A stretch of 64,000 nt of DNA, taken from positions 128,001 through 192,000 of the forward strand of contig CBDDCA010000005.1 of assembly GCA_965226055.1 (NCBI GenBank), given 5' to 3'. The first letter of the stretch is position 1; each line of letters begins with the position of its first letter. Under the pieces are notes generated by a model, which saw only the letters and a program-made list of their open reading frames with translations, made no database searches and was not told where the DNA came from. The stretch is from Spirochaetia bacterium. Its GTDB lineage: Bacteria; Spirochaetota; Spirochaetia; WTKD01; G963693115. Of the stretch, positions 1-63,220 are shown in pieces. The translations under genes were made by a program, and so were the position numbers.

Positions 1-1400
1 TTCCATGTATGAAGAATAGAATCAGCAAAACGCCACTGCGAAAATAATTCATCACTTGACAAAAATAATGAAGCATCATTTATCATAGCACTAAACAATA
101 TTCTATCGTAGCCATTACTATAGTCTATGTCCTTAAATGCATCTTCATAAGGAAAATTCAAATCAGTAGGAATAATTTGTAATGTATTACCGGGTATTTT
201 TGTTTGAACATTCAAACGAATAAATGTTTCGGGCTGAATACGAAATACAAGCCTGTTAGCGTCCAAGTGTATTTTCTCATTATCAGCAGTATTACGAAAA
301 ATATTATGAGGAACTTCCTTAAAATACACAACAAGCTCCGTACATTTCTCCTGAAGTGCTTTTCCTGAACGTATATAAATAGGCACTCCTGACCAACGCC
401 AGTTATCGACATATGTTTTCAATGCAATAAATGTTTCTGTTTTAGAATCTTCTGGGACACCTTTTTCTTGTAAATACCCTTCATATTGAGCACGAATAAC
501 ATTTGTTATGACTTCATTTGCATTGTTATATATACGCAAACTTGAGAGTACTTTATGCTTCTCATTGCGTACACTCTGTGCAGAAAAATCCTTTGGAGGT
601 TCCATAAGAGCCAACGCAAGCATTTGTAATGCATGGCTCTGTACCATATCCTTTAACATACCCGAAGAATCAAAGTAGCCCGCTCTATTTTCCACACGAA
701 TTTTCTCATTCAATGATAACTGAATATGATCAATATATCGTGAGTTCCATAAATTCTCAAATAGAGAGTTTGCAAAACGGAAAAATAAAATATTTTGTAC
801 AGGTTCTTTGCCTAAATAATGATCTATAGAATATATTTGAGCTGGATCAAATATATTTGTAATAAAACGATTAAGTTTGACAGCAGAGATATAATCTTCA
901 CCAAAAGGTTTTTCAAGAACAATTCTTGTATAGGGTTGTTGTCCAATTTTAGTATGAGCAAACTCCTTTCCTCCTGAATTTTTAGTAATAAGTGAAGATT
1001 CTTTTAAGGCTTTGCTTACATTTCTAAACTCTCCCGGAGGCAAGGATAGATAAAAAATACGATTAAGAGATTGATTTGGAACAACCGATAATATATTTTT
1101 TATCTCAGGACATACTGCGTACTGTCCTGAAACATAATGTACAATATCAAGAAATTGAGCATCGTATTTTTTTGTCTTACATAGTTCTTCTTTGTAGCTT
1201 TCTGTTGTAAATTTAGTGCGTCCATAACAAATAATATGAATAGGATCTGGCAATAAACGCGAAACATACAAAGCATGTAACGAAGGAAGCAATTTTTTCT
1301 TAGCGAGATCCCCTGAAGCCCCAAAAATGATAAGACTTACTCCTTTATGAGGACTGACCTGTTCATCAAAATTAGCAACTAAATGTGTATCGGTTGACAT
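1..1400 (-). CDS. zwf: Glucose-6-phosphate 1-dehydrogenase (3' end runs off the window)
   Basis: Manual translation from the ATG at 1400 gives MSTDTHLV...IIFGASGDLAKKKLLPS, then QIYSIDHYLGKEPVQNILFFRFAN, and near position 1 GYDRILFSAMINDASLF. Directly downstream of gnd. Absent from the ORF track because no stop codon falls in the window. Confidence 0.95.
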   Translation of the reverse strand, partial: MSTDTHLVANFDEQVSPHKGVSLIIFGASGDLAKKKLLPSLHALYVSRLLPDPIHIICYGRTKFTTESYKEELCKTKKYDAQFLDIVHYVSGQYAVCPEIKNILSVVPNQSLNRIFYLSLPPGEFRNVSKALKESSLITKNSGGKEFAHTKIGQQPYTRIVLEKPFGEDYISAVKLNRFITNIFDPAQIYSIDHYLGKEPVQNILFFRFANSLFENLWNSRYIDHIQLSLNEKIRVENRAGYFDSSGMLKDMVQSHALQMLALALMEPPKDFSAQSVRNEKHKVLSSLRIYNNANEVITNVIRAQYEGYLQEKGVPEDSKTETFIALKTYVDNWRWSGVPIYIRSGKALQEKCTELVVYFKEVPHNIFRNTADNEKIHLDANRLVFRIQPETFIRLNVQTKIPGNTLQIIPTDLNFPYEDAFKDIDYSNGYDRILFSAMINDASLFLSSDELFSQWRFADSILHTW

Positions 1401-1420
1401 GTTTTTCTTACTCCACTACC

Positions 1421-2827
1421 CTACAAGGATTCCCACTCAGTATGAAAATCTCCTTCCTTATCAATTCTCTTATATGTGTGTGCGCCAAAAAAATCTCGCT
1501 GTGCTTGAATAAGGTTTGCTGGCAAATGCTTTGTTCGTAAACCTTCTAAATACCATAAGGACGTTCCTAGTGCAGTTGCTGGCAATGCATTTTCAACACA
1601 AAGAGCAAGCACCTTTCTTACATGTGCAAGATTATCGCGCACCCGTGTTAAGAAAAAATTATCCTGTAACAGAGTAATTACATTTTTGTCTTTTAATGCA
1701 CGAGACATTTCATCAAGCATAGTTGAACGGATAATACATCCATTACGCCAAATTTCTGCAATAGCAGAGTAGTTTAAGCCAAAATTATATTCTTCATCTG
1801 CTTGACGTAGCATATAAAATCCTTGTGCATATGCAAGAATTTTTCCAGCCAGCAATGTCTTTTCTAAAAGTGAAAAAATTTCTTCTTTTGATGGAATAGG
1901 AACTTGTACTGTTTCTTCCTTGAATAAGGCACTAACAATATCACGTAATTCTCGACTACTAGAAATATAGCGACTATCAAGAGCAGCAGAAATAGCAGGA
2001 AGCGGTGCTCCTAAACGTGCGGCTTCTTGAATTGTCCACATTCCTGTCCCTTTCCCTTTTGCTTCATCTTTTATTTTATCTACTAATATATCCCCTGTTT
2101 CTTCATCTTTTACCGTAAGAATTTTTCGTGTAATATCAATAAGGTAAGAATTTAAGTCAGTAGTACTAAAATAATCAAATAGCTCTACTTGTTCTTGCGG
2201 AGTAAACTTAAAGACATGCTTTGCTATGTCATATATTTCAGCAATAAGTTGCATATCAGCATATTCAATGCCATTATGTACCATCTTTACAAAATGTCCT
2301 GCTCCCCCTGTTCCCATAAAATCTACACATGGAGCTGGATCTTGAGCTGCTACTTTTAATAAATACGGAGCAAGCTCATCATATACTTCTTTTGCTCCAC
2401 CAGGCATAAGAGATGGTCCTTCAAGAGCTCCTCTTTCTCCCCCAGATACTCCCATCCCTAGAAATCGAATATTTTTTTTCTTAAGTTCAGCTTCACGTCT
2501 GATACTGTCACTAAAAAATGAATTTCCTCCATCAATAATAATGTCATCATTTTCAAGGTACGGTACTATATTCTCAATCATAGCGTCTACAGCAGTACCT
2601 GCTTGTACAAGTAAAATAATTTTTCTAGGACGCTCTATTAACTGAACAAATTCCTCCATCGTCTTTCCACCAAAAATTGGTTTTTCTGAATTTTCCGCAA
2701 CAAATTTTTCCATCTTTGATGTGGTTCTATTGAACACTGCTATTGGGATACCTTTGTTGGCAAAGTTTAATACAAGATTTTGCCCCATGACCGCTAACCC
2801 AATAAGTCCTATTTTCGCTTGTGACAT
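1421..2827 (-). CDS. gnd: NADP-dependent 6-phosphogluconate dehydrogenase (decarboxylating)
   Basis: Motifs IGLIGLAVMGQNL, GHFVKMVHNGIEYADMQ, IWRNGCIIRS and LIQAQRDFFGAHTY. AAGGAG RBS upstream. Confidence 0.98.
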   Translation of the reverse strand: MSQAKIGLIGLAVMGQNLVLNFANKGIPIAVFNRTTSKMEKFVAENSEKPIFGGKTMEEFVQLIERPRKIILLVQAGTAVDAMIENIVPYLENDDIIIDGGNSFFSDSIRREAELKKKNIRFLGMGVSGGERGALEGPSLMPGGAKEVYDELAPYLLKVAAQDPAPCVDFMGTGGAGHFVKMVHNGIEYADMQLIAEIYDIAKHVFKFTPQEQVELFDYFSTTDLNSYLIDITRKILTVKDEETGDILVDKIKDEAKGKGTGMWTIQEAARLGAPLPAISAALDSRYISSSRELRDIVSALFKEETVQVPIPSKEEIFSLLEKTLLAGKILAYAQGFYMLRQADEEYNFGLNYSAIAEIWRNGCIIRSTMLDEMSRALKDKNVITLLQDNFFLTRVRDNLAHVRKVLALCVENALPATALGTSLWYLEGLRTKHLPANLIQAQRDFFGAHTYKRIDKEGDFHTEWESL

Positions 2828-2895: not shown

Positions 2896-2978
2896 TGTAG
2901 TTTTGAAATTTTAGAAATTTTACGGAATACTGATTTTACCAAAAGAGATCATACGAAATGGTAAAAGTACATTTTTTA

Positions 2979-3012
2979 AGGAGCTATTATCTCACATAAG
3001 ACAATAGCTCCT
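2979..3012 (-). terminator. Stem-loop 3' of the giant DUF285 gene (terminator or mRNA-stabilising hairpin)
   Basis: Minus strand AGGAGCTATTGTCT-TATGTG-AGATAATAGCTCCT forms a 14-bp stem with one G-U pair, 25 nt after the stop. There is no clear U-tract. Confidence 0.55.
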
Positions 3013-3037
3013 CCATATCCAAGAGTATACTTATGCT

Positions 3038-6000
3038 CTATTTAGAAGATGGTCCTGTATAGGTTCCTCCTGCCCAATCTGGTGTCTTATGTCTTATAGC
3101 AGTACCAGCAAATGCATTTGTCGCATTAACCTTTTTTGATCCAAAATGATCTTTCCATTCATAGAGATCTCTATCAAATGCTGTTGCACCAGCAAACATC
3201 TCAAACATATTAGTAAGACTGCTGACATCCCACCCTGCTATATTCCTATTAAACGCATGATTGTCATAAAACATACCTTTCATATTTTCAACTTTACTTA
3301 CATTCCAGCCTGATATATTCGCACTAAATGGCCGATAGTACAACCCATAGGATGAAAACATATATGCCATATTCGTAACATTACTTACATCCCAGCCTCC
3401 TATACGACTATTAAAACCATCTGTGTTTGAAAACATATAGCTCATATCTGTCACTTTCCCTACCTTCCAGTCTTTTATATCTCCCCTAAATGATGAACCA
3501 TGAAACATATCTCCCATATCGGTAACATTACTCACATTCCACCTTGATATATCTCCATTAAATTTCGATCCACGAAACATATCTCGCATAGTGGTAACAT
3601 TACTTACATCCCAATTTGATATATCCTTATTAAAACTCGAACTATAAAACAGACCTTTCATACTTGTCACATTCCCTACCTTCCAGTCTGATATATCTCC
3701 ATTAAATCTTGAATTACGAAACATACCATACATAAATTTCACATTATCTACCTTCCATTTCGATATATTCCCCTTAAATGATGTATTAAGAAACATATTA
3801 CTCATATCGGTAACATTACTCACATCCCACCCCGATATATCTCCCTTAAATGATGATGTATGAAACATACCTCCCATATCGGTAACATTACTCACATTCC
3901 AACCTGATATATCCCCATTAAATTTCGATTTATAAAACATACCTCTCATATTTGTCACTTTATCTACCTTCCAACCCGATATATCTCCGTTAAATGACGA
4001 TGTACTAAACATACTTTCCATATCTTCTACTTTATCTACCTTCCAGCCCGATATATCTCCGTTAAATGATGTATCAAGAAACATATTACTCATATCGGTA
4101 ACATTACTCACATTCCACCTTGATATATCTCCAGTAAATTTCGATGCCTGAAACATTTCTTTCATGGTTGTAACATTACTCACATCCCACCTTGCTATAT
4201 TCCCATTAAAATTCCTCAAAAAAGGATCATTAAATACCTTACTCATATCCCTAATATTTCCTGTGTATATGACATTCAAATCTGCTCTATTATTAGTAGA
4301 TATCATCTGCCTTATTGCTTTTATCAATTCTGCTTTATTCGTAGGTTGATATTGATATGTCCAGCTTGGTATTTTATCATTAGGTATCTTAGTCTTATCA
4401 AATATCCCTGGTATGTTTATTTTCCTTCCTGCTACATGCTCTCCCCATGATTCCAAATCTTGATTAAACTCTGTTGCTCCGTTAAACATATATTCCATAG
4501 TAGTTACTGTATCAACTGCCCAGCCCGATATATCTTGATTAAAGGCAGTTGCCTTGTAAAACATATAATCCGTATCGGTAACTTTCTTTACATTCCACCT
4601 TGATATATCTCCATTAAATTGCGCATAGGCAAACATAAAGTACATAGTAGTAACATTACCGACATCCCAACCCGATATATCTTTAGTAAATGGCGAATCA
4701 TAAAACATTGCTTCCATATCAGTAACATTACTTACATCCCATTTCGATATATCCCCATTAAATTGCGATTTATAAAACATATGTTTCATATTACCAACAC
4801 TACTTACATCCCAATCTGATATATCCCCATTAAATTGCGATTCACGGAACATCCAATACATCTGTTCTACATCACTTACATCCCAGCTTGATATATCTCC
4901 AGTAAACTGCGATTTATAAAACATACCTTGCATATAGCTCACATTGCTTACATCCCAGCTTGATATATCTCCAGTAAATTGACTCTCCTTAAACAAATTT
5001 CGCATATTGACAACATTACTTACATCCCAGCCCGATATATCCCCATTAAAACTTTTCAAAGCACTGTCATAAAATACCTCACGCATATCTGTTATGTATC
5101 CTGTATATATTCCATTCAAGTCTGCTGTGTTCCCATCAGGGTTACCATCCCCATCAGCATCTGCTGCCATCACTGTTTTTATATTTGCTATCAAAGCATT
5201 CTTTGTTTTTGGGTAATATGTATATGTACCACTACCGTCATGTATGTGTATGGTAAACTCTTTTGTACGCCTTTTTCCTGCATAATCACCAGTCCCTGTA
5301 AACACAATTATATATTTTCTCAGTGCAAGTGCTTTTGTAGGACTTCCGCTTATCAATCCACTAGCTCCACTTCCTCCACTAAATGTCAAGCCTGTGTCTG
5401 CAGTAAAGGTACTTGGCAGTATACTATAGTCCCCTGTCGCATTAAATGTACTCACTCCAGTATTAGTCAATGGAATACTAATGTTCTGTTGCCCTTTTAC
5501 CATAGTAAATAATGAAGCAACATTGCCTCCATATGTCTGTGATATGCTATATATCCAGCTTGGTATATTTTCATCAGAAACATTAGCATCGGTAAATATA
5601 TTTCCCTTATCCACTGTTCTTCCTGCTATATGCTCTCCCCATGCTTCTAAATCTTGATCAAACGCTGTTGTTTTGCGAAACATATTTTTTATAGTAGTTA
5701 CACTATCAACTGCCCACCCTGCTATATCTCCATTAAATTGCGAAAACCAAAACATGCCATACATATTCCTCACATTACTTACCTTCCACCTTGATATATC
5801 TCCAGTAAATTGCGACTTATAAAACATTGTGTCCATATCGATAACATTACTTACATCCCATTCCGATATATCTCCATTAAATGGCGTACCCCAAAACATA
5901 TGTCTCATATTACCAACACTACTTACATCCCATTCTGATATGTCTCCAGTAAATGGCGTTTCATAAAACATTGCTTCCATATCAGTAACATTACTTACAT

Positions 6001-9000
6001 CCCATTTCGATATATCCCCATTAAATGGCGTTCTATAAAACATATAGCGCATAATAGTAACATTACTTACATCCCAACCCGATATATCCCCATTAAATTT
6101 TGATTGATAAAACATTGTTCGCATAGTGGTAACATTACTTACATCCCAATTTGATATATCTCCATTAAATGACGAATCATAAAACATAGATCGCATGGTT
6201 GTAACATTACTTACATCCCATTTCGATATATCCCCATTAAAACTTGTTAAGTCATCACTAAATAACTCACGCATATCTGTAATATTCCCCGTGTAGATGA
6301 CATTCAAATCGGCACTGTTATCATTAGGACTCCCATCATCATTAGTATCCATCACATCCTTTATCGCTGCTATCAACTCCGCTTTATTGGTAGGAGAGTA
6401 ACTATACTTTCCTGCTGCTACTGTCATGATAAATGGTATCTCATAGCTTTTGCTTGCATAGTCTCCTGTTCCACTAAAGAGCAGTGTATAGCTTTTTGTA
6501 CTTTGTACTTTTGTTGGACTCCCACTTATCGCTCCTGTACTTGCATCTAAGCTAAGCCCTATATCTGTTATGCTCGGAGAGATAGTATAACTCCCCACTG
6601 CCGTAGTAGGCAATTTCTTACTTACTGTTATTGCACCATCTGCTTCTATGGCTTTGCCTACAAACCCACTTATAGTACTGCTTTCGGTTCCTCCAACTGT
6701 AAGCACAAAATCGTAGAGCCATGTAGGTATGTTTTTATCAGAGAGTATCACTCCACTATTATCTGCGGTATTGAATATTTTATCAGTATTTACTGTTCTT
6801 TCTGCTATATGCTCTCCCCATGCTTCTAAATCCTTATCAAAGGCTGTTGCCCCTTGAAACATTGACTCCATAGTAGTCACAACATCAACTGCCCAGCTTG
6901 ATATATCTTGATTAAATGCTCCTGTTTCACTAAACATCTGTTTCATAGTAGCTACCTTGCTTACATTCCAATAGGATATGTCCTTATCAAATGCTGTGTT
7001 CTTATAAAACATTAATTCCATATCTGCAACATTTCGAACATCCCATAGGGTTATATCATTGTTATACGCTGTTTCTCGAAACATCTCGTTCATAGTTGTG
7101 ACATTCCTTACATCCCAGCCTGATATATCCCCTGCATATGACGACTTCTTAAACATATCATTCATATCTGTTATGTTCCCTACATCCCAACTTGTTATGT
7201 CTCCATTTTCTCCTGTAAACTTCGATTCTTCAAACATACTGTCCATCGTAGTTACATTACTGACATCCCAGCCCGATATATCCCCATTAAAATTTCTCAA
7301 GGCACTCTCATTAAATATCCCACTCATATCTGTTATATACCCTGTATATATGACATTCAAGTCTGCTGTATTCCCATCAGGGTTACCATCTCCATCAGCA
7401 TCTGCTGCCATCACCGTTTTTATATCTGCTATCAAAGCTGCATTTGTTTTAGGGGTATAAGTATAAGCACTCACATCCTGTATCGTGAGAGTGAGAGGGG
7501 TACTTTTTTTCCTGCCAACATACCCTCCATTTCCTGTAAATGTTATGGTATACTCTTTTGTAGCCAATGCTACCGTAGGAGAACCACTTATCTCTCCAGT
7601 TGCTGTATCAAATATCAACCCTGTATCTGTAGTAAATGTAGTGGGTACTACACTATAAGTTCCTGTTGCTGCTTTTGGTGTTTTGTCAATAGACAGAACA
7701 ATATTTTTATCACTCGTAGTGAACACTTTCTTATTTACTGTAACGCCTGTATCTTTGTACACAAGAGTATATACCCATGATGGAATTTTTTCATCAGGCA
7801 AATGAGAAAATATGCCTGTTATATCCAGTGGTTTTCCTGATTCTGTTATCTCTGGTATATGCTCTCCCCATGCTTCTAAATCTTGATCAAACGATTTTGC
7901 ACTATTAAACATCTCCTCCATAGTAGTGACTTTCTCAACATTCCACCCTGATATATTTTGATTAAAAGATTTTGCTGATGCAAACATTTTCTTCATCCGT
8001 GTAACATCACGCACATCCCACTTTGATACATCTCCATTAAATGGCGAAGCATAAAACATATATCCCATATCGGTAACATTACTTACATCCCAATCCGATA
8101 TATCTCCATTAAATTGCGAAAGCCAAAACATGCCATACATATCCCTCACATTACTTACCTTCCACCTTGATATATCTCCAGTAAATTGCGATTCATTAAA
8201 CATACCATTCATAGCTATTACATTACTTACATCCCAATCCGATATATCTCCAGTAAATGGCGAACCCCAAAACATAAATCTCATATCACTAACACTACTT
8301 ACATCCCAGCCCGATATATCTCCATTAAATTGCGAATTCATAAACATTGATTCCATAATGGCAACATTACTTACCTTCCACCTTGATATATCTCCAGTAA
8401 ATTGCGAGCCACGAAACATATTACTCATACTTGTTACTTTGCTTACCTTCCAGTTTGATATATTGCCATTAAATGATGTACCAAAAAACATATATTTCAT
8501 AGTAGTTACATTACTTACATCCCAACCCGATATATCCCCATTAAATTGCGATTTATAAAACATGGCGTACATGTTTGTAACATTACTTACATCCCAACCC
8601 GATATATCCCCATTAAAACTTCTCAAGACACTGCCATGAAAAACAGCACTCATATCTGTAATATTCCCTGTATAGATGATATTCAAGTCTGCTTTATTAT
8701 CATCTGGCGTCCCATCACCGTTTATATCCATTACCTTTTTTATTGCTGCTATCAATTCTGTTTTGTTATTAGGGAAATATGCATATTTCCCTTGATTTGC
8801 CTTTACTTCTAATGAAAATGGGATAACAAGACTCTTGCCTTGAAACTTAGCGTCTCCAGTAAAAGTAATTGTATATGCTTTTTTTGCTACTTCTTGTGTT
8901 GCTATTCCTTTTATTATTCCCTTTTGTGCATCAAATGATAATCCTGTATCTGCGGTAAATGTATTAGGTGCTATACTATATTGTCCTGTCGCATGTGATG

Positions 9001-10750
9001 GAAATTGCTTTTTAATCCTCACTACTATGTTTTGATACTGCAACACAGTAAGATCGTTTATGCTTGCTTCTTGATATACCACATCAAACACATATGCCCA
9101 TGTAGGTATCTTTTCATCAGATACACTAGAGCTATCAAATATATCTGTTTTATCTACTGTCCTTCCTGCTATATGCTCTCCCCATGCTTCCAAATCTTGA
9201 TCAAATGCTTTTGTTGAATTAAACATATTCTCCATAGTAGTTACCGCATCAACTGCCCAGCCTGATATATCCTGATTAAAGGCAGTTGCTCCTTCAAACA
9301 TACCATCCATAATGGTAACTTTCTTTACATCCCATTGCGATATATCGCTATTAAATTGTGCAGTATGAAACATCTCTTTCATATCTCTCACGTTACTCAC
9401 AACCCAAATTGATATATTTCCATTAAATCGCGATCCACGAAACATCTCTTTCATTTCTCTTACATTACTGACGTCCCAACTTGATATGTCCCCAGTAAAT
9501 TGTGAATCACGAAACATACTATTCATTTCTCTCACATTACTTACATCCCAGCCTGATATATTTCCATTAAACTTTGATCCTCGGAACATCTCATTCATAT
9601 ATTTCACTTTACTGACATCCCAGCCCGATATATCTCCAGTAAAATGTTTCAGCATACTATCATTAAATATACCACTCATATCAGTAATGGCACTGACATC
9701 AATGCTATTGAGATCTGCTGTAGCATTATCAATAATCCCATTCCCATCAGCATCTACTATCACTTTTATGAGTGCTATCAGCTCTGCTTTTGTCTTAGGT
9801 TGTGTCGAATAATCCTTCACTGATACCGATACAGCTGCTTGCACATTTTTATTTACTGCTTTATCAAATTCTCCTGTCCCATTAAAAGTAACAGTAAACC
9901 TGTGAGGACTTCCCTTTGTTATCGTCTTAAGGTCTCCTGCATTTGCTGTTATTGTCCCTGTCGTGCCATCAAAATTCATCCCTGTTGGAAGTACATCTCT
10001 CCCTGCCAACACTGGGAGTAATGCAAATGTTCCTGTTGTTGTTACTGGCCACCGAGTGATAGACACATTCACTGCCCGCCCTACTATTGCCACCACTACC
10101 TTTGGCTCTAACAGCACCTCTAATGTCAACCATCTGGGATCCTCAGTAACCCCCGAATTCTTAAATACATCTTTACTCACTTTACTTACCGCAGGTGCTA
10201 CTGCCCATTGCTTCAGATCCTGAGTAAAAGCAGCTGTTCCTTCAAACATGCTGTTGATCTGTTTTACATTACTTACATCCCAGCCTGATATATCCCCATT
10301 AAATTTGGTCGCTCCCTTAAACATAGTATTCATGTTTGTTACTTTGCTTACATCCCACCTTGATATCCCTCCACGAAACTCTGTCACTCCTTCAAACATA
10401 CCACTCATATTTGTTACATGGCTTACATCCCACTCCGACACATTGCCACTAAAGGTAGGAAACTGGACAAACAAATTACTCATATCAGCAACCTTACTTA
10501 CATCTATATCGTTTAAGTCTGCTGCCATATCTTTACTTAATCGCTCAGAGATAAGCTGTAATAATTGCGACTTTGAGCTAGGCTGTACCTTTCCTCCACC
10601 CCCTCCAGGAGCAGGAGAAGATCCTCCACTAGAGCCCCCTCCTGGATCTTCACAGCCCAGTAATAGTAGTACTAGTACCAATAGTAGCATTACCCCCCCC
10701 CCCCCCATATATACAGCATTGCTATGTATAAACAAATTATTTTTTCTCAT
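3038..10750 (-). CDS. Giant surface lipoprotein with 7 DUF285/BspA-like repeat modules and 5 Ig-like (He_PIG-like) spacers; G14 tract in the signal peptide
   Basis: Start placed at ATG 10750 (MRKNN, preceded by AAGGAG), not 10774. Lipobox LLLGC, Gly/Ser linker, many FNGDISxWDVSNVTxMxxMF repeats, and spacers such as TGLIFDTATGEISGSPT. Confidence 0.9.
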   Translation of the reverse strand: MRKNNLFIHSNAVYMGGGGVMLLLVLVLLLLGCEDPGGGSSGGSSPAPGGGGGKVQPSSKSQLLQLISERLSKDMAADLNDIDVSKVADMSNLFVQFPTFSGNVSEWDVSHVTNMSGMFEGVTEFRGGISRWDVSKVTNMNTMFKGATKFNGDISGWDVSNVKQINSMFEGTAAFTQDLKQWAVAPAVSKVSKDVFKNSGVTEDPRWLTLEVLLEPKVVVAIVGRAVNVSITRWPVTTTGTFALLPVLAGRDVLPTGMNFDGTTGTITANAGDLKTITKGSPHRFTVTFNGTGEFDKAVNKNVQAAVSVSVKDYSTQPKTKAELIALIKVIVDADGNGIIDNATADLNSIDVSAITDMSGIFNDSMLKHFTGDISGWDVSKVKYMNEMFRGSKFNGNISGWDVSNVREMNSMFRDSQFTGDISSWDVSNVREMKEMFRGSRFNGNISIWVVSNVRDMKEMFHTAQFNSDISQWDVKKVTIMDGMFEGATAFNQDISGWAVDAVTTMENMFNSTKAFDQDLEAWGEHIAGRTVDKTDIFDSSSVSDEKIPTWAYVFDVVYQEASINDLTVLQYQNIVVRIKKQFPSHATGQYSIAPNTFTADTGLSFDAQKGIIKGIATQEVAKKAYTITFTGDAKFQGKSLVIPFSLEVKANQGKYAYFPNNKTELIAAIKKVMDINGDGTPDDNKADLNIIYTGNITDMSAVFHGSVLRSFNGDISGWDVSNVTNMYAMFYKSQFNGDISGWDVSNVTTMKYMFFGTSFNGNISNWKVSKVTSMSNMFRGSQFTGDISRWKVSNVAIMESMFMNSQFNGDISGWDVSSVSDMRFMFWGSPFTGDISDWDVSNVIAMNGMFNESQFTGDISRWKVSNVRDMYGMFWLSQFNGDISDWDVSNVTDMGYMFYASPFNGDVSKWDVRDVTRMKKMFASAKSFNQNISGWNVEKVTTMEEMFNSAKSFDQDLEAWGEHIPEITESGKPLDITGIFSHLPDEKIPSWVYTLVYKDTGVTVNKKVFTTSDKNIVLSIDKTPKAATGTYSVVPTTFTTDTGLIFDTATGEISGSPTVALATKEYTITFTGNGGYVGRKKSTPLTLTIQDVSAYTYTPKTNAALIADIKTVMAADADGDGNPDGNTADLNVIYTGYITDMSGIFNESALRNFNGDISGWDVSNVTTMDSMFEESKFTGENGDITSWDVGNITDMNDMFKKSSYAGDISGWDVRNVTTMNEMFRETAYNNDITLWDVRNVADMELMFYKNTAFDKDISYWNVSKVATMKQMFSETGAFNQDISSWAVDVVTTMESMFQGATAFDKDLEAWGEHIAERTVNTDKIFNTADNSGVILSDKNIPTWLYDFVLTVGGTESSTISGFVGKAIEADGAITVSKKLPTTAVGSYTISPSITDIGLSLDASTGAISGSPTKVQSTKSYTLLFSGTGDYASKSYEIPFIMTVAAGKYSYSPTNKAELIAAIKDVMDTNDDGSPNDNSADLNVIYTGNITDMRELFSDDLTSFNGDISKWDVSNVTTMRSMFYDSSFNGDISNWDVSNVTTMRTMFYQSKFNGDISGWDVSNVTIMRYMFYRTPFNGDISKWDVSNVTDMEAMFYETPFTGDISEWDVSSVGNMRHMFWGTPFNGDISEWDVSNVIDMDTMFYKSQFTGDISRWKVSNVRNMYGMFWFSQFNGDIAGWAVDSVTTIKNMFRKTTAFDQDLEAWGEHIAGRTVDKGNIFTDANVSDENIPSWIYSISQTYGGNVASLFTMVKGQQNISIPLTNTGVSTFNATGDYSILPSTFTADTGLTFSGGSGASGLISGSPTKALALRKYIIVFTGTGDYAGKRRTKEFTIHIHDGSGTYTYYPKTKNALIANIKTVMAADADGDGNPDGNTADLNGIYTGYITDMREVFYDSALKSFNGDISGWDVSNVVNMRNLFKESQFTGDISSWDVSNVSYMQGMFYKSQFTGDISSWDVSDVEQMYWMFRESQFNGDISDWDVSSVGNMKHMFYKSQFNGDISKWDVSNVTDMEAMFYDSPFTKDISGWDVGNVTTMYFMFAYAQFNGDISRWNVKKVTDTDYMFYKATAFNQDISGWAVDTVTTMEYMFNGATEFNQDLESWGEHVAGRKINIPGIFDKTKIPNDKIPSWTYQYQPTNKAELIKAIRQMISTNNRADLNVIYTGNIRDMSKVFNDPFLRNFNGNIARWDVSNVTTMKEMFQASKFTGDISRWNVSNVTDMSNMFLDTSFNGDISGWKVDKVEDMESMFSTSSFNGDISGWKVDKVTNMRGMFYKSKFNGDISGWNVSNVTDMGGMFHTSSFKGDISGWDVSNVTDMSNMFLNTSFKGNISKWKVDNVKFMYGMFRNSRFNGDISDWKVGNVTSMKGLFYSSSFNKDISNWDVSNVTTMRDMFRGSKFNGDISRWNVSNVTDMGDMFHGSSFRGDIKDWKVGKVTDMSYMFSNTDGFNSRIGGWDVSNVTNMAYMFSSYGLYYRPFSANISGWNVSKVENMKGMFYDNHAFNRNIAGWDVSSLTNMFEMFAGATAFDRDLYEWKDHFGSKKVNATNAFAGTAIRHKTPDWAGGTYTGPSSK
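3150..10460 (-). repeat. Seven coding arrays of about 72-bp (24-aa) DUF285 repeats
   Basis: GGTAACATTAC recurs at 3521, 3593 and 3881 (multiples of 72). Approximate arrays: 3150-4215, 4460-5055, 5660-6245, 6830-7295, 7880-8620, 9200-9645 and 10220-10460. Confidence 0.9.
10693..10706 (-). repeat. G14 homopolymer in the signal-peptide coding sequence (contingency locus)
   Basis: 14 consecutive C on the plus strand, encoding M-G-G-G-G-V. No other G/C run of comparable length was seen in this AT-rich window. Confidence 0.9.
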
Positions 10751-10860
10751 ATGTATCTCCTTACTTTTTTTCAAAAATATTCAATATTGTATATAATAAA
10801 CTATATTACATAATATTACAATACTGTTTCTGCGATCACCACGAGTTCAAGGACTAAATA

Positions 10861-57175: not shown

Positions 57176-60100
57176 TTATGGCCCCTTATATGTTCCTCCT
57201 GCCCAATCTGGCACTTTATTCGTAGCTACACCAGAATTTGTAAAAGCATTCTTCGTGTTGATGCTTCTTGATCCCAGATGATCTTTCCATTCATATATAT
57301 CCTGACTAAAAGCTGTTGCTTTATAAAATATATATCTCATATCAGTAATACTGCCTACATCCCAACCAGATATATCTTGATTAAATACCGAATTATTATT
57401 AAACATACCCCCCATATTCTTTACACTACTTACATCCCAGTCTGATATACTTTTATTAAAGCTAGTAAACTTGAACATATCAACCATATTTGTAACACTA
57501 CCTACATTCCAAGCATGCAAAGGTTGATTAAAAACAGTAGCTTCACTAAACATTTCCTTCATATTGATTACGCTGCTTGTATCCCAAATATTAAGAGATT
57601 GATTAAAAGCAGTAGCTTTACTAAACATATATTGCATATCATTAACACTACTTACATCCCAACTTGATATATCACCATTAAATACTGAATTATCATAAAA
57701 CATAGATCCCATATTCTGTACGCTACTCACATCCCAACTTGATATATCACCATTAAATACACTTTGATTAAATACCCCTTCCATATTTGTTACATTACTT
57801 GTATCCCAGTAACTTACATCTCCATTAAATGTTTTATTGTTGTTAAAAAGATTTCTAAAAGAAGTCATATTACTTGTATCTATGTTTTTAAGATCTGGAG
57901 AGTTTGTACCTTGCTTAGTTACCTCAGCAGAAATAGCAGTTTGTAATTCTGCCACAGTAGAGGGAGTATGGTCATATACTATTTCAATGATAGTCATATT
58001 CATTACCACTGTTTTTATCTCACCTGTATAAATACCAGAACCTGTGAAGGTTATAGTATAAGCAGTATCATTAGAAGTTACAGAAGGAGTGCCTGAAATA
58101 ATACCTGTATTGGTATCCATTGATATACCAGTAGGAAACGATGGGTTTACTGAAAAAGTACCTGTGGCACTACTAGGAGATTTTTTAACTTCTATATTTT
58201 TTATACCTCTCCCTTTCACTAATTTTGAATATGATGTTTTTACTAAATCAATAGATGCACTATTCACTATAATAGAAAGCTGTATTGTTGGTTGTTGACC
58301 AGTATATGCACCACTAGCAGTAAACGTTATAGTATATTGTTTACTAGACTGTACTACAGTAGGAATACCTGAGATAGCACCTGTGTTGTTATCAATGGAT
58401 ATACCAGTAGGAAACGATGGGCTTACTGAAAAAGTACCTGTGGCTGAACTAATACTTTTGTTAATGAAAAATGGTGAAATAGAAGCATCTTTTATTGCAT
58501 ACACTTGTGTTACTTTTGTAGAAAGAACAATGGCTTCTAACACAGTAATAGTAACTGTCTTGGTTGCATCTGTATACACCCCTGTTCCTGTAAATGTTAT
58601 TGTGTAAGTAGCTTGTGAAGCTAACGCACTAGGTGTTCCTGAAATAGCTCCTGTTGCCTGATCAATACTCAACCCAGCAGGCAACGATGGACTCACAGTA
58701 AAGCTCCCTGTCGCTGCACTCGGATTTTTCGTAACAGTAATGGGTGTTATGCTTTTTCCTTTTATCGCTGTCAAGGTCGCTACATTTGTTGTGAGATTTA
58801 CTGGTTCTTTCACTGCTATACTCACCTGTTTTGTTGCATCTGCATATATTCCTGTTCCTGTAAATGTTATCGTGTAAGTAGCTTGTGAAGCTAATACACT
58901 AGGTGTTCCTGAAATAGCTCCTGTTCCCTGATCAATACTCAACCCAGTAGGCAACGATGGACTCACAGTAAAGCCTCCTGTCGCTGCACTCGGATTTTTT
59001 GTAACAGTAATTGGTGTTATGCTTTGTCCTTTTGTCGCTATCAAAGTCGCTACACTTGTTGTGAGGTTTACTGGTTCTTCCACTGCTATATTTACCTTTG
59101 CTGTAGCATTTACATACACTCCTGTTCCTGTAAATGTTATTGTATAGACCGCTTGTGCAGATGACACACTCGGTGTTCCTGAAATAGCTCCCGTTTTCTG
59201 ATCTATGCTCAAACCAATAGGCAGAGATGGATTTACAGAAAAATTTCCTGTCGCTACACTCGGATTTTTCGTAACAGTAATAGGTGTTATACTTTGCCCT
59301 TTTGTCGCTGTCAATGTTGCTACGCTTGTTGTGAGATTTACTGAACCTTCCACCGTTATACTTACCTGTTTTGTCGCATCTGCATATATTCCTGTTCCTG
59401 TAAATGTTATCGTATAAGTAGTCTGTGCAGATGACACACTTGGCGTTCCTGAAATAGCTCCCGTTTTCTGATCTATGCTCAACCCAGTAGGCAACGATGG
59501 ACTCACAGTAAAGCTCCCTGTCGCTGCACTCGGATTTTTCGTAACAGTAATAGGTGTTATGCTTTTTCCTTTTGTCGCTGTCAATGTTGCCACACTTGTT
59601 GTGAGGTTTACTGGTTCTTTCACTGCTATACTCACCTGCTTTGTCGCATCTGTATATATTCCTGTTCCTGTAAATGTTATTGTATAGGCTGCTTGTGCAG
59701 ATGATACACTCGGTGTTCCTGAAATAGCTCCTGTTTTCTGATCTATGCTCAAACCAATAGGCAGAGATGGATTTACAGTAAAGCTCCCTGTCGCTATACT
59801 CGGATCTTTCGTAACAGTAATGGAAGTTATGCTTTGCCCTTTTATCGCTGTCAATGTTGCTACGCTTGTTGTGAGATTTACTGGCTCTTCTACTGTTATG
59901 CTTACCTGTGCTGTAGCATTTGAGTGTCCACCAGTACCAGTAAAATGTATGGTATATGTTTTTTGTTGAGCTGATACACTTGGTATCCCCGAGATCTCTC
60001 CAGTTCCCTTATCTATACTCAATCCAGCAGGCAACAATGGACTAATAGTAAAATTTCCTGTCGCTGCACTATCTTTTTTGGTAATTGTAATTGGGGTAAT

Positions 60101-63100: not shown

Positions 63101-63220
63101 AAGTTTTGGCTCATCTTCATTAGAACTAGAAGTTAAAAATTCACATCCTACAATAATAAACATCATTGTAGATAATATCAATATACCAATACATAATTGA
63201 AGCATATTGTTTTTTCGCAT
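57176..63220 (-). CDS. Giant surface lipoprotein with 4 DUF285 modules and a tandem He_PIG (putative Ig) stalk
   Basis: MRKNN start with lipobox IVGC, DISxWDVS repeats and LPTGLSIDQKTGAISGTPS repeats. AAGGAGG RBS. Confidence 0.92.
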   Translation of the reverse strand: MRKNNMLQLCIGILILSTMMFIIVGCEFLTSSSNEDEPKLTPPTIPKQITPSTKMELLQLLASRITDTNPSPDLSDIDTSKITNMSDLFVDFPLFNGNISSWNVSNVTDMSGMFKGSVAFNNDISRWNVSKVEKFDSIFEDAISFKQDTELWKVKKSASITDVFIGSGIKAKDEPSWKTKKITITPSDYAIVLQTGKAFNSGFSVQVYPFAAEGELTVSTNTPLPTGISFSYDKENNTGILSAVAGTTVDTAKTNITFTFTPETGSDWETKNAVNIEQDISITIKTFTANPTTKQELIDEIKKLVDTDGDGNADNNSADLNGISTSAITDMSELFTDPLLRSFDGDISEWDVSNVTTMRAMFKGSTFNKDISVWDVSKVTDMTEMFYGANNFNKDIEAWNVASSVIKKDMFKLSAVPFSDYPSWNYTLVSSTKILNGTQDTAITDITFTFSPDNEMVGVSVVPTLPAGLTLALTKDAEYTAKISGIPKIAMPARVYTITFTNTVNNKKKISTDVVIAIKLTRNLTKKSDLITLIKAIVDVDNDGTIDFPRSNLNDIDVSGITDMSNLFSGEVLKDFHGNISKWDVSKVTNMSGMFQGSLFDGDISAWNINTVANFNEMFKDASNFKESLEEWNVKDTATKVDIFKNSGVTGALIPSWAYTFESNSISVLKGEAIATENAISVILFPVGAKGTYVVTPALPDGLLINDTGGIYGTPTTESKVTQYAVQFTGKDEYQGKSVNRNVSIAVANSTVSVTLTTNQKQYTFTKGVAISSITVTKDPSEATGSFTVSPTLPTGLSIDQKTGAISGTPSVSFAQAIYTITFTGIGVYVNATAQVNIAVEEPVNLTTSVATLTAIKRQSISPITVTKNPSAATGDFTVNPTLPTGLSIDQKTGAISGTPSVSSAQAAYTITFTGTGIYADATKQVSIMVKEPVNLTPSMVTLTAIKGKSIIPITVTKDPSIATGSFTVNPTLPAGLSIDQKTGAISGTPSVLATQAAYAIEFAGTGVYADATAQVTLIVKDQEDITPSVATLTATKNQRITPITITKKDSAATGNFTISPLLPAGLSIDKGTGEISGIPSVSAQQKTYTIHFTGTGGHSNATAQVSITVEEPVNLTTSVATLTAIKGQSITSITVTKDPSIATGSFTVNPSLPIGLSIDQKTGAISGTPSVSSAQAAYTITFTGTGIYTDATKQVSIAVKEPVNLTTSVATLTATKGKSITPITVTKNPSAATGSFTVSPSLPTGLSIDQKTGAISGTPSVSSAQTTYTITFTGTGIYADATKQVSITVEGSVNLTTSVATLTATKGQSITPITVTKNPSVATGNFSVNPSLPIGLSIDQKTGAISGTPSVSSAQAVYTITFTGTGVYVNATAKVNIAVEEPVNLTTSVATLIATKGQSITPITVTKNPSAATGGFTVSPSLPTGLSIDQGTGAISGTPSVLASQATYTITFTGTGIYADATKQVSIAVKEPVNLTTNVATLTAIKGKSITPITVTKNPSAATGSFTVSPSLPAGLSIDQATGAISGTPSALASQATYTITFTGTGVYTDATKTVTITVLEAIVLSTKVTQVYAIKDASISPFFINKSISSATGTFSVSPSFPTGISIDNNTGAISGIPTVVQSSKQYTITFTASGAYTGQQPTIQLSIIVNSASIDLVKTSYSKLVKGRGIKNIEVKKSPSSATGTFSVNPSFPTGISMDTNTGIISGTPSVTSNDTAYTITFTGSGIYTGEIKTVVMNMTIIEIVYDHTPSTVAELQTAISAEVTKQGTNSPDLKNIDTSNMTSFRNLFNNNKTFNGDVSYWDTSNVTNMEGVFNQSVFNGDISSWDVSSVQNMGSMFYDNSVFNGDISSWDVSSVNDMQYMFSKATAFNQSLNIWDTSSVINMKEMFSEATVFNQPLHAWNVGSVTNMVDMFKFTSFNKSISDWDVSSVKNMGGMFNNNSVFNQDISGWDVGSITDMRYIFYKATAFSQDIYEWKDHLGSRSINTKNAFTNSGVATNKVPDWAGGTYKGP
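58000..60960 (-). repeat. Tandem 270-bp (90-aa) Ig-like repeats, 11 copies
   Basis: GAAATAGCTC at 58641, 58911, 59181, 59451, 59721, 60261, 60531 and 60801, with variants at 58371 and 59991, giving an exact 270-bp period. An eleventh, more diverged copy lies near 58090. Confidence 0.95.

Follow-up and report, generated by a model that had tools for sequence, protein, structure and literature searches.

Spirochaetes provide precedents for programmed gene-conversion systems, and VlsE of Borrelia and TprK of Treponema pallidum undergo antigenic variation by gene conversion. Simple-sequence contingency loci with poly-G phase variation are known from Neisseria and Campylobacter, BspA proteins have roles in adhesion, and the VLR genes of jawless vertebrates, which are incomplete in the germline, are somatically assembled from flanking cassettes. 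PARCEL/DUF285 lipoproteins have been described from Mollicutes, where they include LppQ, LppC, and the Drp family of Mycoplasma agalactiae (PMC2996958, PMC2824730). The accessible text of Roske et al. 2010 (PMC2996958) sets out the conserved hydrophobic frame and the variable hydrophilic positions of PARCELs, and that of Nouvel et al. 2010 (PMC2824730) describes lipoprotein genes of M. agalactiae whose 5' ends bear polyG tracts of up to 13 nt. The tpr genes of T. pallidum are under poly-G control, according to the accessible part of PMC7864442. The literature found to connect DUF285 with phase variation concerns mycoplasmas or is the PARCEL paper only, and outside subscription journals nothing was found on DUF285 expansion or on poly-G switching of DUF285 genes in spirochaetes.

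In this study, we analysed a window of 64,000 nucleotides (the whole stretch of DNA under study) from a Spirochaetia MAG, and found that it contains a giant gene that is a member of a lineage-specific family of the known PARCEL/DUF285 repeat type. Taken as a whole, we consider it rather probable that this gene encodes a very large surface-anchored leucine-rich repeat (LRR) lipoprotein with recombination-diversified arrays and a probable G-tract switch. In this explanation, seven capped PARCEL/DUF285 arrays are strung along one polypeptide that would be anchored at the surface. On an evolutionary time scale, they have diversified by gain and loss of whole 72-bp units, by ectopic gene conversion or unequal recombination of arrays, both with one another inside a gene and with those of paralogues, and by copying of the whole gene into new loci. 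Slipped-strand changes in the length of a G14 tract would probably switch expression on and off.

The coding sequence lies on the minus strand at 3038..10750, with its ATG at 10750 and its stop at 3038-3040, as given by the ORF, its translation, and Pfam/TIGR matches. The ORF lister begins this frame at a TTG at 10774 (3038..10774, minus strand, 2578 aa); the likely actual start is the ATG at 10750, which is preceded at a distance of 6 nt by a Shine-Dalgarno-like (SD) AAGGAG read from the sequence (10757..10762, minus strand), and the encoded lipoprotein has a length of ~2570 aa. Its lipoprotein signal peptide, MRKNN...VMLLLVLVLLLLGC, is encoded at 10652..10750 (minus strand) and in translation carries the lipobox LLGC with Cys41 (P0001 numbering); the lipobox rule is [LVI][ASTVI][GAS]C. 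Lipoprotein targeting as in PARCELs is thus present as a sequence pattern (MRKNN...LLLLGC with lipobox LLGC). The genes flanking the giant gene are housekeeping genes, encoding 6PGD, G6PD, and DUF2157 and GDYXXLXY proteins.

The sequence-only reading had described seven capped modules of mostly 24-aa repeats, and this layout was borne out. Seven N-caps, each terminated by ADLN, lie at aa 85, 353, 695, 1137, 1488, 1884, and 2164, and the seven C-caps read DLEAWGEH in modules 2-5, DLESWGEH in module 6, DLKQWAVA in module 1, and DLYEWKDH in module 7. Arrays 1-7 hold 3, 6, 10, 6, 8, 8, and 14 units, of which 37 out of a total of 55 are exactly 24 aa long and most others 25 aa, and TRF finds a 72-nt period in all larger arrays. 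In the cap/unit parse, with all features on the minus strand, module 1 (10190..10582) has 3 units between its N-cap and C-cap, and module 2 (9167..9799) has 6 units behind an N-cap with a DADGNGIID loop. Module 3 (7853..8773; 10 units) is the most remodelled array, and module 4 (6803..7453; 6 units) is conserved (dN against paralogue A 0.003) and, by the unit map, largely colinear in six compared sequences. Module 5 (5624..6394; 8 units) is a mosaic, the nearest counterparts of its units 5.4 and 5.7 lying within the gene itself, in modules 6 and 3, and module 6 (4430..5212; 8 units) is colinear with paralogue A (0.93-1.00). A linker of 28 aa (4346..4429) joins module 6 to module 7 (3140..4345), whose 14 units contain an internal 288-bp (4-unit) higher-order repeat (TRF period 288). 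On the plus strand, an ORF at 4979-5512 has a Cys-rich low-complexity translation that is no repeat protein, and it was taken as a by-product of composition.

Five beta-rich spacers of ~130 aa, also on the minus strand, separate arrays 1-6 and are probably Ig-like. He_PIG (PF05345) matches four of the five at E values between 2.4e-5 and 6.4e-4, its 24-bit cut-off being passed by one only. These are spacer 1 (9800..10189, 130 aa, beta-rich and weakly Ig-like; E=6.4e-4), spacer 2 (8774..9166, 131 aa; E=2.4e-5, 25.1 bits), spacer 3 (7454..7852, 133 aa; E=9.7e-5), and spacer 4 (6395..6802, 136 aa; E=2.5e-4), the AF2 model of which is all-beta at low confidence (pLDDT 52). Spacer 5 (5213..5623, 137 aa) aligns with the other spacers and has no Pfam match at E<=0.1.

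Pfam DUF285 (PF03382) matches the protein at E=0 with 1754.1 bits, against a cut-off of 25, over 22 stretches, and the PARCEL repeat model TIGR02167 reaches 515 bits (cut-off 30). NF045896 (Mbov_0838 family PARCEL lipoprotein; 433 positions, 500-bit threshold) gives 991 bits, but this is the sum of 18 partial stretches, the best of which spans model positions 265-420 only, so the score reflects repeat content rather than orthology. Relatives named by NCBI are almost all "BspA family leucine-rich repeat surface protein", and giant multi-domain relatives with Ig-like domains account for 4115 of 7998 candidates at E<=1e-20. The earlier remark that the function of DUF285 is not established is fair, although the family has already been named and described, both as PARCEL and as BspA-family LRR surface proteins.

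Numbering the unit from the D of DISxW, we found five invariant positions (I2, W5, V7, M13, and F17) and eight with an entropy above 2.2 bits (4, 11, 12, 14, 15, 18, 19, and 21), which is the PARCEL pattern of tandem units of ~25 residues with a hydrophobic frame and variable hydrophilic positions. This agrees with the conserved framework and the changing positions around M-xx-M-F noted from the sequence before. However, the hypervariable face is not a peculiarity of the giant gene, since the positions that vary in it also vary across 36 diverse homologues and in the PARCEL description of 2010. In the DNA of the units no dyad symmetry was seen by a simple test of our own design, different from the method of the 2010 paper: the best shift of the consensus against its own reverse complement gave 32/72, against 32.8 +/- 2.3 for shuffles, and reverse-complement k-mer sharing was at the null level.

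The AF2 model of module 5 (pLDDT 96.0, pTM 0.91) is an LRR solenoid. VIA-align superposed it on 166 chains at Z>=8, and all of the 50 matches listed are LRR proteins, with 4u08_B at the top (Z 16.7, rmsd 3.2 A, 241 residues aligned), and with 7zal (Z 15.2, 19% identity), 2o6q_A (Z 13.9), and 4fs7 (Z 13.8) among the others. Foldseek gave weak matches only (best E=0.012), and a sequence search of solved structures gave no match at E<=0.01. One turn per repeat, superposable on solved LRR proteins, is what the model contains, and each array is thus predicted to be an LRR-type solenoid with one turn per 24 aa. In such a solenoid, I2, W5, V7, M13, M16, F17, and F22 form the core, whereas the Tyr/Arg/Trp/Lys/Gly-rich positions 4, 11, 12, 14, 15, 18, 19, and 21 would, from the LRR pattern, be exposed. 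Putative ligand binding is most likely a function of these exposed variable positions, and fold and family together suggest that the giant lipoprotein acts as an adhesin or receptor.

Three DNA identities inside the gene, on which the sequence-only reading had based its case for reshuffling, were all confirmed and are above chance. Positions 4698-4763 and 5961-6026 (modules 6 and 5) are identical at 66/66 nt, 5723-5815 and 8099-8191 (modules 5 and 3) at 91/93 nt, and 3788-3825 and 4076-4113, four repeats apart, at 38/38 nt. Among the 37 canonical units, nine exact matches of at least 36 nt and seven of at least 40 nt were observed, against simulated means of 0.47 (maximum 3) and 0.125, respectively, in 200 simulations with column-wise codon resampling as the null. 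Compared with paralogue A, the giant gene has six indels of exactly 72 bp, and every indel that separates it from the paralogues comprises whole units or a multiple of 3. Between 0 and 5 differences from A per 150 nt are found in the spacers, and up to 44 per 150 nt in module 3, where the last unit is the sole colinear match in A. In addition, there are out-of-order matches, such as unit o5.7 to o3.7 (0.97) and unit o3.3 to the fourth unit of module 6 in the orthologue from the sister species (0.96), and units 6.2 and 6.3 are closest to module 7 of that orthologue.

Alignments of paralogue arrays may pair non-orthologous units, which would inflate the dS, quartet, and PHI signals in the arrays. 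Silent divergence from A (dS) is 0.485 [0.35-0.68] in module 3, 0.21 in modules 5 and 7, and 0.011-0.089 in spacers S1-S5, a range of about 40-fold between segments; 230 quartet sites are concordant and 50 and 58 discordant, the discordant ones clustering in modules 3, 5, and 7; and PHI on the alignment of six paralogous sequences gives p<=0.001 over 671 informative sites, with p<=0.001 for the 412 array sites and a weaker p=0.005 (about 3 SD) for the 259 spacer-only sites. Turnover is seen in arrays 3, 5, and 7. Arrays 1 and 4 remain stable throughout the comparisons, module 4 retaining colinear units at 6/6 in A, A2, and the sister species (G001), 5/6 in paralogues C and D, and 4/6 in B. The units of arrays 2 and 6 correspond one to one with those of A and A2, but these arrays are conserved only against those two copies. 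The syntenic orthologue of G001 has arrays of 3, 6, 10, 6, 9, 6, and 15 units. Together, the 72-bp indels, the dS contrast, the out-of-order matches, and PHI support movement of repeat units and segments between arrays by recombination on an evolutionary scale, and to that extent the proposed reshuffling stands. Mosaicism inside one unit is not supported: PHI fails to reach significance for the 37 canonical 72-nt units (p=0.97, or 0.12 with third positions alone; by module, p=0.79 for M3/5/6 and p=0.027 for M7), single units being too short and too saturated for PHI to be informative. Nor is the repertoire held within one gene, as had been proposed, because relatives and possible donors occur in six multi-module paralogues and 69 family ORFs.

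The arrays might instead be products of neutral repeat dynamics, that is, leftovers of tandem duplication and unequal crossing-over, with variability in unconstrained surface residues and no adaptive role. Many exact matches do lie in register within one array, at offsets of 72, 144, 216, 288, 360, and 576 nt, TRF reports higher-order periods of 144, 216, and 288, and the non-significant unit-level PHI and the family-wide variability of the same positions point the same way. So does the lack of any sign of positive selection: dN/dS at the variable positions never exceeds about 1, reaching about 1.0 only where units are non-orthologous, and lies at 0.5-0.8 in colinear modules. However, the longest matches are out of order and link different modules lying at a distance of 1.2-2.6 kb, and the variable positions of modules 1 and 4 are under purifying selection (dN/dS 0.11-0.26), which means that those residues matter. 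Furthermore, the family is kept intact at 69 ORFs and 313,317 bp, 13.9% of a 2.25-Mb genome, and its ORFs of 1500-2500 aa stay open even behind out-of-frame starts, which argues for selection to retain the repertoire. We therefore regard a purely neutral origin as rather unlikely. As to the spread of the family, DUF285 matches are present in all five other genomes of the same taxonomic family (87-175 in four, 1 in the fifth) and in none of three genomes of the sister family.

The G14 homopolymer (10693..10706, minus strand; poly-C on the plus strand) is a new observation, absent from the earlier note. It lies 44 nt downstream of the ATG, with the n-region (MRKNNLFIHSNAVYM) of the signal peptide on one side and the h-region on the other, and, as in contingency loci, separates the start codon from the main part of the ORF. 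In a genome of 35% GC, 36 G/C runs of at least 8 nt and 30 of at least 12 nt were found, whereas fewer than 0.01 of the latter are expected by hand calculation from base composition. Twenty-one of the 36 sit at the 5' ends of family ORFs, in all cases with G on the coding strand. Tract lengths among the paralogues run from G9 to G20 (modal 14-15), and in one public contig the tract of the giant gene is 4 nt shorter. Homopolymer lengths are error-prone in long-read assemblies, so ON/OFF calls are tentative: the giant gene is in frame (ON) in the current assembly, and the 20 tracts with an intact downstream ORF of at least 500 aa (505-2550 aa) divide into 5 whose SD-linked ATG is in frame and 15 for which it is not. 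A and A2 have an out-of-frame SD-linked start but keep a second, in-frame ATG that abuts the tract, so their state is ambiguous. In G001, 14 of 20 examined tracts precede the same lipoprotein signal, with 1 of these 14 in frame and 13 out of frame (14 out of frame among 15 scored). Differences in tract length, in- and out-of-frame states, and intact ORFs are thus found together, with the uncertainty of assembled homopolymer lengths, and the G14 tract is probably a slipped-strand on/off switch, a candidate that would have been acquired recently by the giant gene, as no tract is present in the orthologue of the sister species or in paralogues B, C, and D. With at least 20 family genes carrying a G tract, the part of the repertoire that a cell displays would keep changing.

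Runs of 13-16 G are of sufficient length for RNA polymerase to slip, and the tracts could therefore act by transcriptional or ribosomal slippage, giving low constant expression whatever the DNA frame and no heritable switching. The excess of intact genes that are out of frame (15/20 here and 13/14 in G001), above the two thirds expected at random, would fit such a mechanism. But the spread of tract lengths among paralogues and the shorter tract in the public contig are as expected for DNA-level slippage, and DNA-level homopolymer switching at the 5' ends of surface lipoprotein genes is documented in mycoplasmas in the accessible part of PMC2824730. We consider expression by slippage of this kind unlikely, and a probable slipped-strand switch remains our preferred reading of the tract.

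According to Megablast, the unit at 2977..10859 is present three times in the genome, the other copies lying at C5:367687-375317 and C6:843384-851014. These two are ~91% identical to the giant gene, the scaffolds are 97-100% identical across the three copies, and the copies differ in arrays 3, 5, and 7. The closest relatives, A and A2, are full-length genes at dispersed loci, each with its own upstream region, SD, start, tract, and signal peptide. It would be tempting to see here a two-layer system of an uncultured spirochaete genus, in which independent poly-G switches in the signal-peptide region of at least 20 paralogues give a combinatorial display and the three scaffold-identical copies exchange array segments in real time, although we hold this to be improbable. 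We would be as sceptical of arrays 3, 5, and 7 as variable cassettes on a constant frame, resembling VlsE/TprK but with a solenoid binder in place of a porin or coat protein, and similarly doubt that having one copy in frame and the SD-linked start out of frame in the other two is part of such a system.

Another alternative is programmed high-frequency segmental gene conversion, working like VlsE/TprK or, in outcome, like lamprey VLRs. The giant gene, as the expressed copy, would then keep taking up array segments during growth, from the two near-identical copies and from other paralogues, and antigenic variants would arise within a clone. The near-identical scaffolds with differing arrays 3, 5, and 7, the frame states of the three copies, and the spirochaete precedents would fit it, as would patches of 28-171 nt that carry 40 of the 96 A/A2 differences and exact patches of 44-66 nt between flanks only 64-82% identical. 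Against this, the putative donors are complete genes rather than promoterless cassettes grouped around an expression site, the copies have undergone few events since their separation (spacer dS 0.01-0.09), and arrays 1 and 4 are static everywhere while arrays 2 and 6 equal those of A and A2 unit for unit. A perfect donor for the four clusters in which A/A2 differences lie was not found in the genome, the best non-self matches being 92-95% identical, so that no donor is identical to any recent patch. In four public runs, which are short assembled contigs with many joints having sides of 21-60 nt that can come from paralogues, 38 of the 39 within-ORF variant positions among the 40 rows listed (out of these and 439 further rows) carry a known paralogue or orthologue letter, with no sign of extra variants among them. 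Programmed conversion is accordingly quite unlikely in our view.

That the shared segments and odd arrays are chimeras of collapsed or mis-joined repeats is extremely improbable. Chimeras would fit the highly repetitive nature of the gene, its two further copies of ~91% identity, and the breaks inside it in public short-read contigs (longest listed piece 893 nt). Against them, its frame is uninterrupted over 7.7 kb, its indels keep whole units or multiples of 3, all 30 bins of the stretch are covered by contigs from four public runs, and a sister-species chromosome that was assembled independently has the same seven-module plan at the same locus.

Among the "surface proteins" of genomes and metagenomes, DUF285/PARCEL proteins belong to the most common, with thousands of clusters matched, and have almost no known ligands. 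The locus described here is a compact natural experiment. Its three near-identical copies have most of their differences in three of the seven arrays, and it comes with a sister-species orthologue, a confident LRR model, and a probable simple-sequence switch. Its arrays diversify by whole-unit indels and ectopic exchange, and not by point mutation under positive selection. Our results suggest that roughly one seventh of the genome in an uncultured lineage of spirochaetes is given over to an LRR repertoire that can be switched. If the switching proves true, a bacterial group and a protein family would both be new to contingency-locus biology, and there would be a handle on what DUF285/PARCEL proteins bind.

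Compared with known systems, the protein shares the LRR solenoid fold with BspA-family/TpLRR-type proteins (4fs7, 4h09) and the FNIP-type LRR 7zal, although no solved structure matches it by sequence. With the VLRs of jawless vertebrates it shares capped LRR solenoid arrays of variable units, and hagfish VLR 2o6q_A is among the fold matches but is no better than other LRR proteins. A VLR-like repertoire had been raised from the sequence. Somatic assembly as in VLRs is not indicated, since the gene is complete and open from the SD-linked ATG to the stop and has housekeeping genes rather than LRR cassettes at its flanks. Moreover, VLRs vary on the concave beta-face, whereas positions 11-21 here would, from the LRR pattern, lie mostly outside the I-S-x-W-x-V strand.

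Like VlsE and TprK, the giant lipoprotein is a predicted spirochaete surface protein with mosaic exchange among paralogous segments. However, exchange is seen here only over evolutionary time, the protein family is unrelated, and an expression site with adjacent silent cassettes is not found, A and A2 being full-length and dispersed. The tpr genes are also similar in that homopolymeric G tracts are tied to expression of a paralogous surface-protein family, but the tpr tract lies in the promoter, whereas the tract here is inside the coding region and would be a translational frame switch. Contingency loci likewise have a long 5'-coding poly-G tract, many independent surface-protein loci per genome, and mixed in- and out-of-frame states with intact downstream ORFs. 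The tracts here, as putative switches, differ in being longer (modal 14-15), in occurring in a 35% GC genome, and in being concentrated in one protein family.

The PARCELs of Mollicutes have the same Pfam/TIGR repeat, lipoprotein targeting, nearly every unit unique, and blocks that are sometimes separated by spacers, and their multigene families, which vary between strains and contain homopolymer frameshifts in some members, have been proposed as sequence reservoirs. As far as the accessible parts of these sources extend (PMC2996958, PMC2824730), the present family differs from them in several respects. Its host is a spirochaete, its units are mostly 24 aa instead of 25, its unit DNA showed no dyad symmetry in our test, and the model is an LRR solenoid where the 2010 paper predicted amphipathic helices (PMC2996958). 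Furthermore, seven capped arrays and probably Ig-like spacers are combined in one 2570-aa protein, the family comprises 69 ORFs and 13.9% of the genome as compared to 12-13 genes, and the G tract lies within the signal-peptide coding region of the DUF285 genes themselves.

The giant gene (window 3038..10750, minus strand) belongs to the known kind of PARCEL/DUF285/BspA-type LRR surface lipoproteins, as a new and very large member. According to the ORF listing and translation, it lies in an open frame of 2578 codons (3038..10774, minus strand), in which translation most likely begins at the ATG at 10750, six bases 3' of AAGGAG. The translated N-terminus, MRKNNLFIHSNAVYMGGGGVMLLLVLVLLLLGC, is predicted to be a lipoprotein signal peptide, with LLGC as its lipobox. 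The body of the protein is made up of seven capped repeat modules, as the sequence-only reading had described. Each has a helical, ADLN-terminated N-cap (aa 85, 353, 695, 1137, 1488, 1884, and 2164) and a DLxxW C-cap (DLEAWGEH in modules 2-5, DLESWGEH in module 6, divergent in modules 1 and 7). There are 55 units in total (3/6/10/6/8/8/14 in modules 1-7), 37 of them exactly 24 aa long, and TRF found a periodicity of 72 nt in the arrays. Between modules 1-6 lie five spacers, each 130-137 aa long, and a 28-aa linker connects modules 6 and 7.

Two further features of the coding region were observed. In modules 2-6, the N-caps contain a D-x-[DN]-[GD]-[DN]-G-x-x-[DN] loop, such as DADGDGNPD, resembling calcium-binding loops (9728-9754, 8702-8728, 7376-7402, 6323-6349, and 5135-5161, minus strand); this region gave a weak Pfam FG-GAP_3 match (E=5.8e-4), and AlphaFold2 confidence drops to about 75 at the motif. 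On the plus strand, antisense ORFs of 86-182 aa run across the arrays, and the one at 4979-5512 (plus strand) translates to a Cys-rich, low-complexity product. This last ORF most likely arises from skewed composition (GC skew -0.26 to -0.36).

Family membership is indicated by a Pfam DUF285 match (E=0, 1754 bits, 22 stretches) and by NCBIfam TIGR02167, 'PARCEL repeat-containing surface protein' (515 bits). Relatives abound: when 8000 candidates between 154 and 490 aa long were scored against module 5, 7773 matched at E<=1e-10, and when 7998 between 1417 and 4512 aa long were scored against the whole protein, 4115 matched at E<=1e-20, many of these having Ig-like domains as well. Nearly all NCBI-named relatives are called 'BspA family leucine-rich repeat surface protein', with one 'surface protein' per list; entries from the eukaryote Bathycoccus prasinos are named 'unnamed protein product'. 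PARCELs (a name standing for palindromic amphipathic repeat coding elements) were described in Roske et al. 2010 (PMC2996958), which reports periodic conserved hydrophobic residues alongside hydrophilic positions that vary strongly, arrays of 2-59 nearly all unique units, blocks occasionally interrupted by spacers, and lipoprotein targeting, and puts forward 'intra-genomic shuffling'. The sequence-only reading had noted a 'hypervariable face'. The positions left undefined in the consensus of 36 diverse homologues are those that vary inside the giant gene, and this feature is therefore a trait of the family rather than of this gene.

No sequence match to the giant protein was found among solved structures. 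An AlphaFold2 model of module 5 built from a 36-sequence alignment (pLDDT 96.0, pTM 0.91) has a helix at the N-terminus and a beta-bridge once per 24 residues, at unit position 12 (counted from the D of DISxW). Foldseek against the PDB returned only weak LRR matches for this model (best 4fmz_B, E=0.012). VIA-align against 48,161 chains gave 166 at Z>=8, and all 50 of those listed were LRR proteins, led by 4u08_B (Z 16.7 over 241 aligned residues, rmsd 3.2 A); FNIP-type 7zal scored Z 15.2 (19% identity) and BspA-like 4fs7 Z 13.8. The model and these matches together indicate that every array is an LRR-type solenoid. By the LRR pattern, I2-S-x4-W5-x6-V7 would be the strand segment of the unit, and in positions 11-21 buried M13, M16, F17, and S20 would alternate with exposed variable residues. 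The spacers appear weakly Ig-like, with a He_PIG match in four of five (E 2.4e-5 to 6.4e-4), and their AlphaFold2 model is all-beta yet unreliable (pLDDT 52).

The sequence-only reading had also placed the repertoire within a single gene, which does not fit the genome-wide paralogue family that we found. The window corresponds to positions 128001-192000 of contig C5 in a genome of 2.25 Mb and six contigs (C1-C6). A motif search counting ORFs with at least three units found 69 family ORFs in this genome, summing to 313,317 bp or 13.9% of it. DUF285 was present in all five further genomes from this taxonomic family, with 87-175 matches in four and one match in the fifth, an 88%-complete assembly of 60 contigs, and in none of three genomes of the sister family of the order. 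The seven-module plan is common to six genes, the five paralogues being A (C5:367806-375197), A2 (C6:843504-850895), D, C, and B, with 91.5%, 91.0%, 76.5%, 75.2%, and 63.4% amino-acid identity to the giant gene, respectively. The stretch common to the giant gene, A, and A2 (window 2977-10859) comprises the gene and about 60-120 bp on each side, and nothing further.

The sister species has a syntenic orthologue with the same genes on both sides, flanks of about 90-92% DNA identity, and arrays of 3/6/10/6/9/6/15 units. Directly downstream of the giant gene, the glucose-6-phosphate dehydrogenase and 6-phosphogluconate dehydrogenase genes (3-2827, minus strand) are a housekeeping baseline next to a fast-changing gene; the latter's protein is 99% identical to that of the sister species. 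The sister species also has an additional giant paralogue adjoining a 1.2-kb multi-copy element (L002:4948-6158), and the matching site in our genome is empty. This element, probably an insertion sequence, has copies 94% identical, located in our genome at C6:228721-229931, C5:528414-529624, C2:119862-121070, C4:60711-61921, and C4:116286-117496.

Other architectures were also observed. A second family member in the window (57176-63220, minus strand, 2014 aa) has 12 He_PIG Ig-like and 6 DUF285 stretches, forming a long Ig stalk with arrays at the C-terminus, and has no long G tract at its 5' end. About 40 ORFs of 1530-1625 aa (for example C6:627691-632403 and C5:75574-80313, outside the window) share a near-identical lipoprotein signal, HSRYKQNLT...LVLVGC, and have 3-5 C-terminal DUF285 units. 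At C5:613097-624344, six ORFs in a row (1003, 1022, 610, 365, 313, and 311 aa) are built almost entirely from DUF285 units, and the ADLN N-cap motif was not found in them. Either a broken giant gene or a unit store could account for them; one 78% match aside, the best matches of the giant gene's arrays did not include them.

What the sequence-only reading saw is confirmed, and its interpretation holds in part. The claim of recombination among repeats stands for exchange of segments. The three DNA segments reported as shared were recovered exactly (66/66, 91/93, and 38/38 identical positions), and exact matches of at least 36 nt among the 37 canonical units exceed chance, with nine observed against a mean of 0.47 and a maximum of 3 in 200 column-wise codon resamplings of those units. 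Compared with A, the giant gene shows 0-5 differences per 150 nt in the spacers and modules 1, 2, 4, and 6, climbing to 44 in module 3, along with six indels of exactly 72 bp. Sliding-window best matches show the giant gene to be a mosaic: A contains nothing close to module 3, whose pieces are closest to paralogue D and to the gene's own module 5, and nt 145-290 are closest to paralogue C (97-100%). In the unit map, relations run out of order between modules and genes. Module 5 unit 7 matches module 3 unit 7 at 0.97 and its counterpart in A at 0.83, module 5 unit 4 matches module 6 unit 5 at 0.94, module 3 unit 3 matches unit 4 in module 6 of the sister-species orthologue at 0.96, and module 6 units 2 and 3 pair with module 7 of that species. 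Colinearity is highest in module 4, with one-to-one units in 6/6 cases for A, A2, and the sister-species orthologue, 5/6 for C and D, and 4/6 for B. Quartet sites numbered 230 for the giant gene with A and 50 and 58 for the two discordant patterns, which concentrate in modules 3, 5, and 7. In the six-sequence alignment PHI was significant for all 671 informative sites (p<=0.001), for 259 spacer-only sites (p=0.005), and for 412 array sites (p<=0.001), where alignments between paralogues may pair non-orthologous units. Inside single units PHI was not significant, and the claim does not extend to that scale. No perfect donor was found for four clusters containing 40 of 96 A/A2 differences.

Positive selection on point mutations would be another source of the extra divergence. 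Silent-site divergence is 0.485 [0.35-0.68] in module 3 and 0.21 in modules 5 and 7, against 0.011-0.089 in spacers 1-5 and 0.024-0.094 in modules 1, 2, 4, and 6; because silent and replacement sites rise together, the excess reflects segment replacement instead. There was no sign of dN/dS above 1 in frame positions (0.06-0.25), spacers (0.24-0.36), or variable positions. At the latter it reached about 1.0 only where units were not orthologous, and was 0.51-0.78 against A and A2 in modules that are colinear (counts small) and 0.11-0.26 in modules 1 and 4 against the sister species and C. Some arrays are clearly constrained. Repeat-segment exchange is real, though seen only on an evolutionary time scale, and nothing in the assembled sequences compared points to VLR-like or VlsE-like programmed assembly.

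Among the new leads, a poly-G tract system is the most useful. A run of 14 G (10693-10706, minus strand), missed by the sequence-only reading, follows the start codon and precedes the signal peptide's hydrophobic core. This 35% GC genome has 36 G/C runs of at least 8 nt (modal length 14-15), of which 21 are at 5' ends of family ORFs, with G on the coding strand in every case; among the 32 runs of at least 9 nt, 20 have behind them an intact ORF, 505-2550 aa long, that starts with a lipoprotein signal. At least 20 DUF285-family lipoprotein genes on contigs C2-C6 have 5' homopolymers of 9-20 nt. At assembled lengths, which are uncertain for homopolymers, an ATG behind a Shine-Dalgarno-like sequence is in frame at five of these 20 loci (the giant gene, C4:145509, C5:123067, C5:412491, and C5:450702) and out of frame at 15. 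A and A2 are out of frame because of a 1-nt deletion ahead of the tract; their state is ambiguous, since a second ATG abutting the tract stays in frame. Four other G14-G20 tracts (C1:13372, C3:96327, C4:27722, and C6:662400) have near-identical 60-nt upstream sequences and no long ORF downstream, and look like repeated-element ends rather than gene switches.

The sister species has many tracts (183 overlapping 12-G matches); 14 of 20 examined lie ahead of the same kind of signal peptide, one of the 14 in frame. Of three other genomes compared, one has two tracts and two have none of this kind. The tract is recent in the giant gene, because its sister-species orthologue and B, C, and D have none; C has a degenerate GTGGGAGGA at that place. 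In one public-run contig, about 94% identical and perhaps from another strain, the giant gene's tract is 4 nt shorter. The arrangement makes the tracts candidate on/off switches for a large repertoire of LRR lipoproteins in this uncultured genus of spirochaetes.

With respect to known systems, the LRR solenoid model corrects the amphipathic-helix prediction of Roske et al. 2010 for PARCELs. Hagfish VLR 2o6q_A (Z 13.9 against module 5) is no closer than other LRR proteins, and unlike in VLRs, variability would, by the LRR pattern, lie mostly on an arc outside the classical concave strand. The tract arrangement, as read from assembled sequence, has the same anatomy as simple-sequence contingency loci, and a report on Mycoplasma agalactiae (PMC2824730) offers a precedent, both for DUF285 genes and for lipoprotein genes with polyG at their 5' ends.
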